17,567 bases of DNA. It comes from Octopus sinensis (Eukaryota). The position numbers and the translations under genes were made by a program. Shown here one piece after another: positions 1,215 through 16,520 of this stretch. The DNA is taken from contig NW_021824999.1 of the NCBI RefSeq assembly GCF_006345805.1, positions 1-17,567 on the forward strand. The letters are read 5' to 3'. Each line of letters opens with the position of its first letter. Positions within the stretch are counted from its first letter, which is position 1. Below the pieces are notes generated by a model. The model saw only the letters and a list, made by a program, of their open reading frames with translations. It had not been told where the DNA came from and ran no database searches.

Positions 1215-1619
1215 CTCTTTACTCTTTTACTTGTTTCAGTCATTTGACTGCGGCCATGCTGGAGCACCGCCTTTAATCGAGCAACTCGACCCCGTGACTT
1301 ATTCTTTTGTAAGCCCAGTACTTATTCTATCGTTCTTTTGCCGAACCGCTAAGGTGACGGGGACGTAAACACACCAGCATCGGTTGTCAAGCAATGCTAG
1401 GGGGACAAACACAGACACACAAACACACACTCGCAAACACATATATACATATATACGACGGGCTTCTTTCAGTTTCCGTCTACCAAATCCACTCACAAGG
1501 CTTTGGTCGGCCCGAGGCTATAGTAGAAGACACTTGCCCAAGGTGCCACGCAGTGGGACGGAACCCGGAACCATGTGGTTGTTAAGCAAGCTATTTACCA
1601 CACAGCCACTCCTGCGCCT
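1215..1619 (-). mobile_element. Full-length tRNA-derived SINE (family C, CORE-like central motif)
   Basis: Minus strand starts GGCGCAGGAGTGGCTGTGTGGTAA (A box), then GGGTTCCGTCCC (B box), CCTTGGGCAAGTG (resembles the CORE-SINE motif), an internal (TG)n and a (GTAAAAGA)n tail, with (TA)n on both sides. Homologous copies at 13999, 14107 and 16955. Confidence 0.9.
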
Positions 1620-2505: not shown

Positions 2506-2884
2506 AATACATAATAACAGTATAGAGTAACCCATCAGATTAATGCAAAATTCCTTTTATTATACTTCATTTCATCTAGGTCGTCCCACAGGACACCCCA
2601 AAATCGTTTCCACACGTTTTTTCCCATTTATCTCGATCTTCCATAATGGTCCTCAGCTCCTCCACCCCTTCCATACCATTCTCCTCCACCAAGTTATCAA
2701 TATAGGTTGCCTTCCTCCTTCCTCTCCTTGTTCCTCCTTCCTCTCCTGGTTCCTCCTTCTGTTCGTTGCCAAAGAATAATCTTCACATATTTAACAGCCA
2801 CATAACTAATTGTCGTGACGTAGTGTTTCAACGTTTCGATTTTATTCACTCGTTATCTATTGACGTCATCGGAAATTAAATACC

Positions 2885-4410
2885 TATTTCTTTATTACCC
2901 ACAAGGGGCTAAACACAGAGGCGACAAACAAGGACAGACAAACGGATTAAGTTGATTACATCAACCCCAGTGCATAACTGGTACTTAATTTATCGACCCC
3001 GAAAGGATGAAAGGCAAAGTCGACCTCGGCGGAATTTGAACTCAGAACGTAACGGCAGACGAAATACCTATTTCTTTACTACCCACAAGGGGCTAAACAC
3101 AGAGGCGACAAACAAGGACAGACAAAAGGATTGAGTCTATTACATCGACCCAAGTGCGTAACTGGTACTTACTTAATCGACCCCGAAAGGATGAAAGACA
3201 AAGTCGACCTCGGCGGAATTTGAACTCAGAACGTAACGGCAGACGAAATACTTATTTCTTTCCTACCCACAAGGGGCTAAACACAGAGGCGACAAACAAG
3301 GACAGACAAAAGGATTAAGTCTATTACATCGACCCCAGTGCGTAACTGGTACTTACTTAATCGACCCCGAAAGGATGAAAGACAAAGTCGACCTCGGCGG
3401 AATTTGAACTCAGAACGTAACGGCAGACGAAATACTTATTTCTTTCCTTTCCTACACCACAAGGGGCTAAACACAGAGGCGACAAACAGGACAGACAAAA
3501 GATTAAGTCTATTACATCGACCCCAGTGCGTAACTGGTACTTACTTAATCGACCCCGAAAGGATGAAAGACAAAGTCGACCTCGGCGGAATTTGAACTCA
3601 GAACGTAACGGCAGACGAAATACCTATTTCTTTCCTAACCTCAAGGGGCTAAACACAGAGAGGACAAACAAGGACAGACAAAAGGATTAAGTCTATTACA
3701 TCGACCCCAGTGCGTAACTGGTACTTAATTTATCGACCCCGAAAGGATGAAAGGCAAAGTTTACCTCGGCGGAATTTGAAGTCAGAACGTAACGGCAGAC
3801 GAAATACCTATTTCTTTCCTACCCACAAGGGGCTAAACACAGAGGCGACAAACAAGGACAGACAAACGGATTAAGTCTATTACATCGACCCCAGTGCGTA
3901 ACTGGTGCTTAATTTATCGACCCCCGAAAGGATGAAAGGCAAAGTTGACCTCGACGGAATTTGAACTCAGAACGTAACGGCAGACGAAATACCTATTTCT
4001 TTACTACCCACAAGGGGCTGAATATAGAGGGGACAAACAAGGACAGACAAAAGGATTAAGTCTATTACATCGATCCCAGTGCGTAACTGGTACTTAATTT
4101 ATCGACCCCGTAAGGATGAAGGGCAAAGTCGACCTCGGCGGAATTTGAACTCAGAACGTAACGGCAGACGAAATACCTATTTCTTTACCACCCACAAGTG
4201 GCTAAACACAGAGGCGACAAACAAAGACAGACAAACGGATTAAGTCTATAACATCGACCCCAGTGCGTAACTGGTACTTAATTTATCGACTCCGAAAGTA
4301 TGAAAGGCAAAGTTGACCTCGACGGAATTTGAACTCAGAACGTAGCGGCAGACGAAATACTACTAAGCATTTCGCCCAGCGTGCTAACGTTTCTGCCAGC
4401 TCGCCGCCTT
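2885..4410 (-). mobile_element. SINE family A concatemer: one tRNA-like head plus 8 tandem bodies of about 184 bp
   Basis: Unit starts (TACC/TTATTTC) at 2881, 3065, 3249, 3433, 3621, 3805, 3990 and 4174. A single head at 4358-4410 reads AAGGCGGCGAGCTGGCAGAAACG (A box) on the minus strand. Each unit has a B box GAGTTCAAATTCC or a close variant. Flanked by the direct repeat AATTAAATACC (2874-2884, 4413-4423). Confidence 0.93.
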
Positions 4411-4906
4411 ACAATTAAATACCAAACTAGCTTCTCTTAGAATATTCTATTTCTTCTTAACGAGTTTTTTGTATGCGTTCATCTATTAGAGATATTTGCT
4501 TAGTTTAGTTTGAATTTAATTTATTTTGGGTTGGATTATGCTAACATTGTGTTAGCATATATTTTCGGACATATCAATTTCACTGGTATTTTGTATTCTT
4601 TTCTTCTGAATCTAAATATATTGGAACAATAAAAACGATCAGCGGTAGTGTATTGTGTAATCACCAATTAAATATGTGATTTTCACCATTCTCCTTCATT
4701 TTATCTTATAGTCCGAATTTCTTCAAATTCTTCAAATTCTTCGAAATGAAGTGTATTACATTCGGTGCTTATTCTTCTTGCAATAATTAATATCTGATTA
4801 CTGGATATATTTAACCAAATTCGTTTTAACACGGTGCTTTTTAGAGAGCTGCCTTGTTTTATTAATACCGTTTACACACGTCAATATAACTAAATTTTTC
4901 GTATTC

Positions 4907-10429: not shown

Positions 10430-10618
10430 TACTTATGGTGAAAGGTGTCAAAACACCTTATCTGCTGAGGGCGAAGTAGCCTTAGTTAAATAGAAATCGT
10501 AGGTGTATAATCGAACAACAAATATTAATTAGTGACTCGCTCCCAGACCGTCCGGTCAGAATAAATTTAGTAGTGTTAGCGCTTTTGACTGATAAAGTAC
10601 AGCGTTGACATCAGCTCT

Positions 10619-12458
10619 ATTTGAACCCAGAACCTAACAGGCCATAACTAAATATAGCATTATACTTAAACGCCACGTACGATTCCATCAAATTAGTATT
10701 TTTATGTATTTTCTATCTTTACTACCCACAAGGAGATAAACACAGAGGGGACAAACAAGGACAGACAAAGGGATTAAGTCGATTATATCGACCCCAGTGC
10801 GAAACTGGTACTTTGTTTATCGACTCCAAAAGGATGAATGGCAAAGTCGACCTCGGCGGAATTTGAACTCAGAACGTAACGGCAGACGAAATACCAATAT
10901 CTTTACTACCCACAAGGGGCTAAACACAGAGGGGACAAACAAGGACAGAAGACGGATTAAGAAGATTATATCGACCCCAGAGCATAACTGGTACTTATTT
11001 AATCGACCCCGAAAGGATGAAAGGCAAAGTCGACCTCGGCGGAATTTGAACTCAGAACGTAACGGCAGAAGAAATGCCTATTTCTTTACTACCCACAAGG
11101 GGCTAAACACAGAGGGAACAAACAAGGACAGACAGACGGGTTAAGGCAAAGCTTACCTCGGCGGAATTTGAACCCAGAACCTAACAGGCCATAACTAAAT
11201 TTAGTATTATACTTAAACGTCACGTACGATTCCATCAAATCAGTATTTTTATGTATTTTCTATCTTTACCCCCACAAGGAGCTAAACATAGAGGGGACAA
11301 ACAAGGACAGACAGACGGATTAAGAAGATTATATCGACCCCAGAGCATAAATGGTACTTATTTAATCGACCCCGAAAGGGTGAAAGGCAAAGTCGACCTC
11401 GGCGGAATTTGAACTCAGAACGTAACGGCAGACGAAATACCTATTTCTTTATTACCCACAAGGGGCTAAACATAGAGGGGACAAACAAGGACAGACAAAG
11501 GTATTAAGTCGATTACATCGACCCCAGTGCGAAACTGGTACTTAATTTATCGACCCCGAAAGGATGAAAGGCAAAGTCGACCTCGGCGGAATTTGAACTC
11601 AAAACGTAACGGCAGACGAAATACCTATTCCCTATTTCTTTACTACCCACAAGGGGGCAAACAAGGACAGACAAAGGGATTAACTCAATTACATCGACCT
11701 CAGTGCGAAACTGCTACTTTATTTATCGATCCCGAAAGGATGAAAGGCAAAGTTGACCTCGGCGGAATTTGAATCTAGAACTAACAGGCCATAACTAAAT
11801 ATAGCATTATGCTTAAACGTCACGTACGATTCCATCAAATTAGTATTTTTATGTATTTTCTATCTTTACCCCACAAGGAGCTAAACCTAGAGGGGACAAC
11901 ACAGGACAGACAGACGGATTAGAAGATTATATCGACCCCAGAGCATAAATGGTACTGATTATTTAATCGACCCCGAAAGGGTGAAAGGCAAAGTCGACCT
12001 CGGCGGAATTTGAACTCAGAACGTAACGGCAGACGAAATACCTATTCTTTATTACCCACAAGGGGCTAAACATAGAGGGGACAAACAAGGACAGACAAAG
12101 GTATTAAGTCGATTACATCGACCCCAGTGCGAAACTGGTACTAAATTTATCGACCCCGAAAGGATGAAAGGCAAAGTCGACCTCGGCGGAATTTGAACTC
12201 AAAACGTAACGGCAGACGAAATACCTATTCCCTATTTCTTTACTACCCACAAGGGGGCAAACAAGGACAGACAAAGGGATTAACTCAATTACATCGACCT
12301 CAGTGCGAAACTGCTACTTTATTTATCGATCCCGAAAGGATGAAAGGCAAAGTTGACCTCGGCGGAATTTGAATCTAGAACCTAACAGGCCATAACTAAA
12401 TATAGCATTATGCTTAAACGTCACGTACGATTCCATCAAATTAGTATTTTTATGTATT
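10619..12458 (-). repeat. Higher-order repeat: 95-bp spacer X alternating with three headless family A SINE units, (X-S-S-S')x3-X
   Basis: X at 10619-10713, 11166-11260, 11767-11860 and 12367-12458; periods 547, 601 and 600 bp. The SINE units are homologous to 2885-4357 and share the same internal junction. Confidence 0.92.
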
Positions 12459-12684
12459 CTAAACTAATGTAAACAACTAACGGAATCTAGTGTCAAAAAC
12501 ATCAACAGTCTTGTTATTGGTTTCGTCACAAACAACTGGACTGTTGTACTAATACGTTACTAAAAGGTCAGTCCATTTCAGTTCTTTTTTAGTTCTCACG
12601 CCTTTGTTTACGTCGAAATTCTTCGAAAGCGATAAACATTGAATTGTTTTGCCGTCCATTATTTAATGGCTGTATGCGTAATCT

Positions 12685-12937: not shown

Positions 12938-13033
12938 CACCACCCACCACCTCTACTGCGACCGATACCATCAACGACAATGCCACCACTAGCTCCACCA
13001 CCTCTACTACGACCGATACCATCAACGACAATG

Positions 13034-13081
<48 letters not shown>

Positions 13082-13540
13082 ATACTACTACTAATACAAC
13101 CATCACCACCACCACTTCTACTACTACTACTTCTACTACTACAACTGCTGCTGCTACTACTACTACTACTACTACTACAAATGCCACCACCACCAACACC
13201 ACCACCACTGTGATTACTACTACTACCACCACAAAGAACCTCTACTACCGCTACTACCACAACCACCAACACCGCCACTACCATCAACGCTACCACTACG
13301 ACCACCACTACGACCACCACCACCACACCATCATCAACTCCACTACTACCATCACCACCATCGCCACCACACTCGCCATCGCCACCACCACCGCCGGCGC
13401 CACCGGAACCACCATCGTTGCCCCACCATCGCCGCCCACACCACTACCACCATCATCATCACTACCACCACCATCATCATCCTTACCACCACCATCATCA
13501 TCACTACCACCACTACCACAACAACCATCAACACCGCCAT
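12938..13540. repeat. Degenerate (ACT)n/(ACC)n/(ATC)n trinucleotide tract
   Basis: Direct reading. Includes a 51-bp-period duplication (CCACCTCTACT.CGACCGATACCATCAACGACAATGCCACCAC). Confidence 0.92.
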
Positions 13541-13932: not shown

Positions 13933-13998
13933 AGGTAAAAGACAAAATATGTGTGTGTGCTTGTGTCTGTCTGTGTTTGTGTGTGTGTATGTGTGTGT

Positions 13999-14107
13999 AG
14001 GCGCAGGAGTGGCTGTGTGGTAAATAGTTTGCTTACCAACCACATGGTTCTGGGGTTCAGTCCCACTGCGTGGTAACTTGGGCAAGTGTGTTCCACTATA
14101 GCCTTAG
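13999..14107 (+). mobile_element. Family C SINE, 5' part only
   Basis: AGGCGCAGGAGTGGCTGTGTGGTAAATAG...GGGTTCAGTCCCACTGCGTGGTAACTTGGGCAAGTG, nearly identical to the reverse complement of 1515-1619. Confidence 0.9.
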
Positions 14108-14464
14108 TCATTGGACAGCGACCATACTAGGGCATCACCTTGACAGGTTTTAGTCAAACAAATCGACCCCTATTTTATAAACCTTGTACTTGTTCTATCG
14201 TTATTTTTTATTTACTGAAAAGCTGTTACGTGGACATAAACAAACCAACATCAGTTTACGAACGCTGGCGGTGGCAGTGGGACAAACACATACACAGATG
14301 TATTAACACAATGGGCTTCCACTCAGTTTTCGTCAAGCAAATTCACTTCCAAGGCATTGGCCGGTGGGGGCTATAGTTTTAGGTACTTGCCAAGCATGGT
14401 CCACATTGGAACTGAACCGAAATGGGCCGCAACGTGAACTTTTTGCAGCATAGTCATCTCTGCG
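14107..14464 (-). mobile_element. Old diverged family C SINE
   Basis: Colinear similarity to 1236-1617 (TACTT.TTCTATCGTT, GGACATAAACA.ACCA.CATC.GTT, GGGCTT, GGCTATAG, ACTTGCC, ACTGAACC). Confidence 0.75.
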
Positions 14465-15961: not shown

Positions 15962-16183
15962 AAGGCGGCGAGCTGGCAGAAACGTTAGCATGTCGGGCGA
16001 AATGCATAGCCATATTTCGTCTGCCGCTACGTTCTGAGTTCAAATTCCGCCGAGGTCGACTTTGCCTTTCATCCTTTCGGGGTCGCTAAATTAAGTGCCA
16101 GTTGCGTACTGGGGTCGATGTAATCGACTGGCCCTTCTCCCAAAATTTCTGGCCTTCTGTCTAGAATAAAAAAGATTATTATT
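15962..16183 (+). mobile_element. Full-length family A SINE with type B tail ending in (ATT)n
   Basis: AAGGCGGCGAGCTGGCAGAAACG head, B box GAGTTCAAATTCC, body GTCGACTTTGCCTTTCATCCTTTCGGGGTCG, tail GCCCTTCTCCCAAAATTTCTGGCC...GATTATTATT. Confidence 0.9.
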
Positions 16184-16185
16184 GT

Positions 16186-16388
16186 AAGGTGGCAGCGAAC
16201 TGGCAGAATCGTTAGCACGCTGGGCGAAATGTTTAGCAGTATTTCGTCTGCCGCTACGTTCTGAGTTCAAATTCATTTCGGGGTTGAGAAATTAAGTACC
16301 AGTTACGCACTGGGGTCGATGTAATCGACTTAATCTGTCTGTCTGTCCTTGTTTGTCCCCTCTGTGTGTAGCCCCTTGTGGGTAGTAA
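16186..16388 (+). mobile_element. Family A SINE with type A tail and an internal deletion of about 25-30 bp
   Basis: Head plus B box, deletion after GTTCAAATTC, tail GTCTGTCCTTGTTTGTCCCCTCTG...CCCCTTGTGGGTAGTAA. Confidence 0.88.
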
Positions 16389-16520
16389 CTGGTACTTAAT
16401 TTATCGACCCCGAAAGGATGAAATGCAAAGTCGACCTCGGCGGAATTTGAACTCACAACGTAACGGCAGACGAAATACCGCTAAGCATTTTGCTCGACGT
16501 GCAAACGGTTCTGCCAGCTC
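16385..16520 (-). mobile_element. Family A SINE 5' half, inverted against the preceding copy
   Basis: GTAACTGGTACTTAATTTATCGACCCCGAAAGG...GACGAAATACCGCTAAGCATTT...TTCTGCCAGCTC. Confidence 0.88.

Follow-up and report, generated by a model that had tools for sequence, protein, structure and literature searches.

In Octopus sinensis, copies of one SINE are joined into chains at a fixed site within their own head, and a LINE inserts at that same site. We consider it likely that the chains grow as the machinery of this LINE, or of an older relative, inserts new copies there, and that the process is target-specific retroposition acting genome-wide with the SINE itself as the target. Head-to-tail chains would then occur across the genome because the probable enzyme donor lands at a fixed spot inside the SINE. 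The stretch analysed here (the window) is an entire unplaced contig of 17,567 nucleotides from a 2.72-Gb genome, and coordinates without a locus name refer to it.

An eight-unit array with one head and one junction

The array at 2881-4410 lies on the minus strand and consists of a single SINE head (4410-4360), which carries an A-box-like motif and is the sole head of the array, followed by eight bodies of about 184 bp (184, 184, 185, 184, 188, 184, 184 and ~182 bp); TRF returns a period of 184 and 8.0 copies. This is the organization reported in the preliminary description, as is the position of the seven internal junctions, all of which fall at one point, tail|TATTTCGTC. The exact 20-mer given there matches five of the seven, and the other two read AAATAAG. 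The point is fixed as described, but insertions in other copies place the break one base further 5', at A|GGTATTT. Body 1 (4176-4359) is a 117-bp core with the B box followed by a LINE-like tail, tail A. Bodies 2-4 (3992-4175, 3807-3991 and 3623-3806) are mosaics of locally shared and subtype variants, bodies 5-7 (3435-3622, 3251-3434 and 3067-3250) differ from one another by 0-2%, and body 8 (2885-3066) is the terminal unit. A perfect 11-bp target duplication, GGTATTTAATT, flanks the array on the same strand, with its 5' copy at 4413-4423 and its 3' copy at 2874-2884; the first seven bases of the 3' copy are the SINE's own loop site.

The 8-mer has grown mostly by local duplication, from one or a few founders: units 1-7 have a rare variant in common, units 5-7 are nearly identical, and the array's two-variant combination is rare genome-wide, with four matches (two of them inside the array) compared with 27,489 for the common form. 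These counts rule out a genome-wide subfamily as the source of the shared variants. Bodies 5-7 probably represent a recent local duplication, although an assembly error is possible on this unplaced contig. Because the target duplication starts with seven loop-site bases, a microhomology duplication could have started the array. Local duplication explains much of the 8-mer, as one model in the preliminary description held, but that model's single ancestral dimer does not fit, because many subtype pairings occur and units carry independent mutations.

Folding of the monomer RNA predicts a hairpin (whole-monomer z = -2.1), with its stem at 4377-4367 and 4360-4350 in this array (minus strand) and the insertion site, J1, at the 3' edge of its loop. 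The hairpin, already noted in the preliminary description, is backed by covariation at head positions 45 and 50, where 79 of 144 heads read T-G and 33 read G-C. Both pairs lengthen the hairpin. In the G-C form the GG match for the SINE 3' end is lost, and the LINE still inserts there. Docking of the SINE 3' end on this stem, also proposed earlier, is not needed, nor is the hairpin itself, because a second junction class, J2, lies outside the hairpin at head position 17.

The element has the attributes of a SINE as defined in SINEBase (PMC3531059), that is, short, non-coding, interspersed and present in at least 100 copies: the monomer is about 235 bp, and one head-loop 20-mer has 27,069 exact matches in the genome. 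The last ~45 bases of its tail (taken from unit 7) are identical at 30-33 of 45 positions to the 3' ends of three LINE-type families, and target duplications flank most A monomers. A- and B-box-like motifs can be seen by eye, while ARAGORN finds 0 genes and Rfam no tRNA match. The head is putatively tRNA-derived. Head and central domain appear to resemble the octopus OR1/OR2 CORE-SINE, and we presume that this is likely the same family. The relevant passages of PMC4824008 and PMC4758252 name OR1/OR2 and make no mention of self-insertion.

Junction classes across the genome

The J1 20-mer has 35,298 exact matches in the genome and its reversed control has 0; matches are distributed along contig C1. 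Other junction positions do exist, although J1 dominates: J2, where the second tail variant joins head position 17, accounts for 2,940 exact matches. Tail B, a third tail type, is joined to J1 in only five exact matches genome-wide. The general layout of a copy is a head, any number of core-tail A units, and a final core with tail A or B, B being terminal. A strict parse, which loses some longer arrays, yielded 144 arrays comprising 65 monomers, 48 dimers, 20 trimers, 10 tetramers and the 8-mer of the window, such that 78 of 79 multimers have 2-4 units. Nearly all subtype pairings of neighbouring units occur, and arrays that mix A with B or J1 with J2 are common. A rare array at L278-L281 (G000:C10005:23133-23662) has a spacing of ~168 bp, with tail B joining the loop site.

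We examined junction choice in a non-random 600-kb sample (599,500 bases in four blocks that are junction-rich or near known matches), of which the SINE family makes up 4.9%. Among its 67 A tails, 41 end at J1, 7 at J2, 1 at a full head and 18 in other genomic sequence; 48 of the 67 are thus SINE joins at J1 or J2, though SINE sites are just 62 of the 2,977 GGTA sites in the sample. The tail letter predicts the junction: in counts from a sample enriched for both junctions, 86 of 88 T-tails join J1 and 25 of 27 C-tails join J2, with three others joining J1. The same short matches recur where tails end in non-SINE DNA, which starts with GGT after 29 of 57 T-tails compared with 1 of 24 C-tails, and with AG after 9 of the 24 C-tails. 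Given this correspondence, the 3' end of the SINE RNA appears to pick its junction by a 3-6-base match. The first base at SINE junctions is G in 150 of 154 cases and C in none. SINE heads in the sample often lie directly behind another copy's tail B (six cases, at head position 1), which suggests clustering at reused AT-rich targets.

A LINE that inserts at the loop site

Three families whose 3' ends are related emerged from matches to the tail alone. One of them, here called the J1 LINE (L352-L383), is a young 5.3-kb family. With a 181-nt query of LINE sequence only, the best 40 of 341 candidates were all 100% identical, and at each of 30 loci among those best matches the LINE continues into a SINE core at J1, (C/G)GTATTT. 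The first base is C at 18 loci and G at 12, a split that is expected because the SINE head has two variants. The SINE cores downstream of the LINE differ by a median of 9.5%, with none of 435 pairs identical, while the LINE itself differs by 0.5%; a single chimeric master is therefore ruled out. At the other end, the sequence upstream of all four full 5' ends examined is a SINE head with 16 bases of the site behind it, a spacer that matches at 15 of 16 positions in L382 and L383, and one truncated copy shows a head and a 14-bp duplication. The two full copies examined are 5.3 kb long and 98.9% identical. The copy at L382 (G000:C9:48224450-48230949, minus strand) retains an intact ORF1 (zf-CCHC) and an intact ORF2 (Exo_endo_phos, RVT_1, zf-RVT), and so encodes both an APE endonuclease and a reverse transcriptase. 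Domain order, together with one automatic cluster name, suggests that the J1 LINE is Tx1/L1-like: in the Atlas, the 58%-identical protein of the sister LINE L165 falls in a TX1-named cluster (0.96, rank 3), and L382 in unnamed clusters alone.

The assignment of LINE to SINE is not one-to-one. The LINE families are of more recent age than most arrays, and their tail letters have no simple counterpart among the SINE variants: the J1 LINE has an age of ~1%, compared with 3-4% for most arrays, and it carries the tail letter by which SINEs join J2. Judging from these ages and tails, the SINE was probably mobilized by an older relative of the LINE, or the preference of the LINE arose after the SINE had become abundant. 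The sister LINE (L165:330-5372, minus strand; L292-L321; 8,100 exact tail matches) occupies (TATC)n at 26 of 30 loci and was rejected as the partner, as the SINE site occurs at 0 of 30 of its loci. The third element (L322-L351) is young and 1.75 kb long, with an ORF1-like frame and no match to a reverse transcriptase; HAL1 provides a precedent for such an ORF1-only element (PMC5753468). It forms dispersed tandem arrays with target-like spacers. The sequence that follows its end is AGAAACG in 21 of 30 cases, and six copies enter a SINE head at J2.

Nested insertions, target duplications and unit ages

Whole SINEs are also found inserted at the loop site of other copies. The corresponding pattern (loop site, at most 16 bases, full head) has 155 exact genome matches, so that whole elements split by a target duplication are a minority beside the 35,298 seamless joins, the two patterns differing in stringency. 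Duplications of 10-16 bases were present in 13 of 30 rows (24 loci), and at L107, L108 and L121 private variants are duplicated on both sides of the nested SINE. Nine of the 30 rows sit behind a tail, not a head. The commonest spacer is 16 bases, in ~35 of 100 rows by hand count, nine of which come from loci with tandem heads. At these loci (L109-L117), 65-bp repeats of a SINE head plus 16 bases place up to six heads before one body, a likely residue of nested insertion and local recombination.

Divergence was counted at non-CpG core positions, leaving aside nested arrays and the window. It increases from A monomers (0.033, n = 44) through first units (0.040, n = 68) and middle units (0.059, n = 30) to last units, where it is 0.066 for A (n = 24), 0.069 for B1 (n = 30) and 0.093 for old B (n = 14). 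A target duplication was found for 28 of 41 A monomers (null rate 0.5%) and for 8 of 21 B monomers; among arrays, 14 of 25 that end in A and 34 of 44 that end in B have one. Mismatches between the two copies number 13 of 446 positions in A monomers, 9 of 237 in A-ended arrays, 34 of 520 in B-ended arrays and 7 of 125 in B monomers, the difference between B-ended arrays and A monomers being significant (p = 0.01). By these measures, the 3' units and the target duplications have roughly double the apparent age of the 5' units. In A-only arrays the difference between first and last units is not significant (p = 0.08-0.16), and per array (n = 48) duplication mismatch shows no correlation with the divergence of any unit.

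Where the downstream unit is of the old type (29 loci, one duplicate dropped), divergence averages 0.100 in heads, 0.049 in first bodies and 0.097 downstream, and an old head marker is present in 12 of 25 scorable heads with such a unit compared with 5 of 44 (p = 0.001). Chimeras of old head, young body and old body thus exist. In the first sample, the heads on B-ended arrays (0.054-0.058) are as young as those of A monomers, whereas B-monomer heads stand at 0.094-0.148, and a young head marker occurs in 8 of 44 B-ended arrays and 0 of 21 B monomers. Heads on B-ended arrays have therefore often been replaced, or some arrays arise at the RNA level. One headless dimer carries its own 15-bp duplication, and so whole arrays must sometimes retrotranspose.

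In seamless arrays, the target bases immediately 3' of the site seldom occur in duplicate (13 of 119, compared with 8% in shuffled sequence), which makes target duplication a minor route to the seamless join at most. A long 3' extension of the RNA lacks support, as C follows GGTATTT in ~14 of 78 non-nested rows (hand count), near background. A reverse-transcriptase stop at J1 likewise lacks support, no copies starting there: 174 copies start at positions 1-8, and four scored at position 52 keep the upstream loop bases. In a comparison for orthologs at L282:3900-6100, contigs of four sequencing runs (X4, X7, X8 and X10) contain partial flanks and none spans the array; X10 reaches the old head, to 4825. 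A search of sequencing runs recovered at least half of the array's words in 14 runs under five organism labels.

A proposed mechanism and its alternatives

The mechanism that we propose joins these observations by steps that we infer, namely nicking, the form of the RNA ends, annealing and the identity of the mobilizing LINE. The LINE endonuclease would nick the loop site, and the 3' end of the SINE RNA, approximately GGUAUU (AGAAA for the second tail variant; proposed ends ...AUAGGUAUU(U)), would prime there through a few matching bases, the match selecting J1 or J2. The cDNA would end in the head and anneal to the homologous head of the target, which would leave a seamless join and a single head, sometimes the old one and sometimes its replacement. 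Every round would place a body behind the head and shift older bodies 3'. Tandem bodies would then expand and contract by local DNA recombination, as in most of the 8-mer, and some arrays would be transcribed from their single head and retrotransposed whole. Among the three models in the preliminary description, support is strongest for loop-site insertion resolved by homology with the head; a LINE that shares this target is also known. Against it stand the young heads of B-ended arrays, the scarcity of duplicated target bases in seamless arrays, the absence of a per-array correlation with duplication mismatch, the non-significant contrast in A-only arrays, the age and tail letter of the J1 LINE, the headless dimer, and the first base of the join, which is never C for SINEs and is C in 18 of 30 cases for the LINE. 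Moreover, internal junctions carry the same downstream site yet are seldom targeted, and annealed joins brought no gain in efficiency in experiments with R2 (PMC11331408).

It is possible, but unlikely, that a few multimeric masters, rarely formed, were retrotransposed whole from one head and diversified by unequal crossover and core recombination, a wider form of the ancestral-dimer model in the preliminary description. One duplication encloses the whole array in 48 of 69 non-nested multimers, the head is often like the first unit, and the headless dimer has a duplication of its own, as expected if masters moved intact. Neighbouring A units have rare variants in common in 10 of 20 dimers and in 23 of 46 long-array pairs (seven of these from the window), compared with 14.6% by chance, and hybrid units and tandem heads reflect local recombination. 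The last units of different arrays, however, differ pairwise by 0.126-0.167, about twice their divergence, so that their mutations are private and not derived from a master. Such masters are also at odds with the occurrence of nearly every subtype pairing and with the older duplications of B-ended arrays, and they leave old heads on young bodies and a LINE at the same site unexplained. Still less probable, in our estimation, is template jumping, in which the reverse transcriptase moves through a 3-6-base match to the 3' end of another SINE RNA, or re-copies the same one, and makes the concatemer at once. L1 ORF2p yields template-jump concatemers in vitro (PMC10830420), and jumping would account for the single duplication, for mixed units, for young heads and for the restriction of B to the 3' end. 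Under this model, however, A units should show no gradient from 5' to 3', and neither older duplications nor old heads would be expected; copies that start at J1 are also absent. In addition, the LINE shares the site and makes a duplication, which points to an event at the DNA level.

The preliminary description gave prominence to a 184-nt circular RNA, formed by cleavage and ligation in the loop and copied by rolling-circle reverse transcription in the manner of retrozymes. The constant unit length and junction, and the near-identical neighbours in some arrays, are what a circle would produce. Arrays nevertheless begin with a head, which the circle would lack, and A/B and J1/J2 mixtures are common. 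Neighbouring A units are on average 0.11-0.12 apart, compared with 0.127 between arrays. A rare variant is shared in 3 of 28 mixed dimers (chance 14.5%), leaving 25 that share none. No ribozyme family was found in an Rfam scan to E = 1, in which the matches were microsatellite artefacts below the gathering score, and the CTGANGA core is absent from both strands of the unit. Junction-spanning reads would look the same from a circle and from a genomic multimer. The DNA pattern argues against a circular RNA intermediate, and we regard one as highly improbable.

Returning to insertion at the loop site, we lean slightly towards a broader reading, a self-homing SINE-LINE system in which the head carries the target of the partner LINE. 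Several hundred thousand SINEs would then form a renewable landing pad for the LINE, its ORF1-only derivative and the SINE itself, and head homology would erase the scar of each insertion, leaving seamless concatemers across the 2.7-Gb genome. The G45-C50 variant may be an escape from self-insertion. These chains offer a testable route from dispersed SINE to tandem repeat with intermediates kept at tens of thousands of loci, and a case of retroposons that exploit another retroposon as a safe place to insert. In such a genome, the copy numbers and age profiles inferred for SINEs would be misleading if most young units lie within older ones. The LINE, being intact, recently active and precise in its target, is moreover a natural system in which to study target choice and 5' joining by APE-type elements.

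Relation to known systems

The closest parallels are with Tx1-clade LINEs and SINEU (PMC4494074), among which Tx1 inserts into Tx1D, Tx1-Mar and SINEU-3 into Mariner-N4_AMi, and Kibi and Koshi into microsatellites. As in those systems, an APE-type LINE prefers a repeat as its target and a SINE shares the target of its partner; the preference of the sister LINE for (TATC)n recalls Kibi and Koshi. That study sets its threshold at a single target type in over 20% of flanks; for the J1 LINE the figure is 30 of 30. Here, unlike in Tx1/SINEU, the target is the SINE's own head, and, unlike SINEU-3 tandems, which have a duplication between whole copies, the joins are mostly seamless and headless. The 5' joining that we envisage resembles the 'anneal' junctions of R2 (PMC11331408), where the 3' end of the cDNA pairs with upstream target, 11 bp suffice and no duplication results. 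R2 is a LINE of a different type that inserts into 28S rDNA, whereas here a dispersed SINE serves as the target and the element's own head would provide the homology.

Transposable-element dimers formed by double insertion (McGurk and Barbash 2018, PMC5932611) similarly lead from site preference to tandems and then arrays, but they consist of whole elements at a shared target, while here the site is internal and a headless 184-bp unit is repeated. The SINE-derived squamate satellites sSat1-3 (PMC10702118) share a unit shorter than the SINE and leading and trailing monomers. The 8-mer has six middle units, compared with the at least four middle monomers that characterize sSat, and such lengths are rare elsewhere; the octopus arrays are short, dispersed and bounded by duplications, and they use two junctions. 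Retrozymes (PMC4918200) are likewise non-autonomous retroelements with tandem forms in animals. The present units contain no hammerhead and no LTRs, are heterogeneous, and come with a head and a LINE-like tail. Searches of the open-access literature returned no report of a SINE that targets its own head; parts of the system may be described in Repbase Reports or in the octopus SINE paper of 1994. The passages on repeats in two octopus papers (PMC13282606, PMC12988792) list L1-Tx1 or SINE content and no such targeting, and their supplements might bear on it.

Other copies in the window

A second array (10591-12462, minus strand) has six J1 junctions, as the preliminary description stated for 10714-12366, but it is organized as three head-less blocks of ~550-600 bp, each a non-SINE 5' piece followed by three bodies, and one of the six junctions matches the 20-mer exactly. 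Two blocks are 99% identical (591/597), evidence of higher-order duplication, and at most four of the junctions are therefore independent. The non-SINE piece that stands in place of the head in each block is ~78 bp long (10637-12462, minus strand) and has no match elsewhere among the loci compared. The same SINE family is also represented by a monomer of the order head-core-tail B with, behind it, a head-core-tail A monomer that has an internal deletion (15962-16388, plus strand) and by a 3'-truncated copy (16385-16520, minus strand). A second SINE family, probably OK-like, lies at ~1215-1616 (minus strand) and ~13998-14460 (plus strand) and has partial similarity to tail A. The interval 12944-13539 is a long (ACT)n/(CCA)n low-complexity tract that includes a 51-bp duplication.
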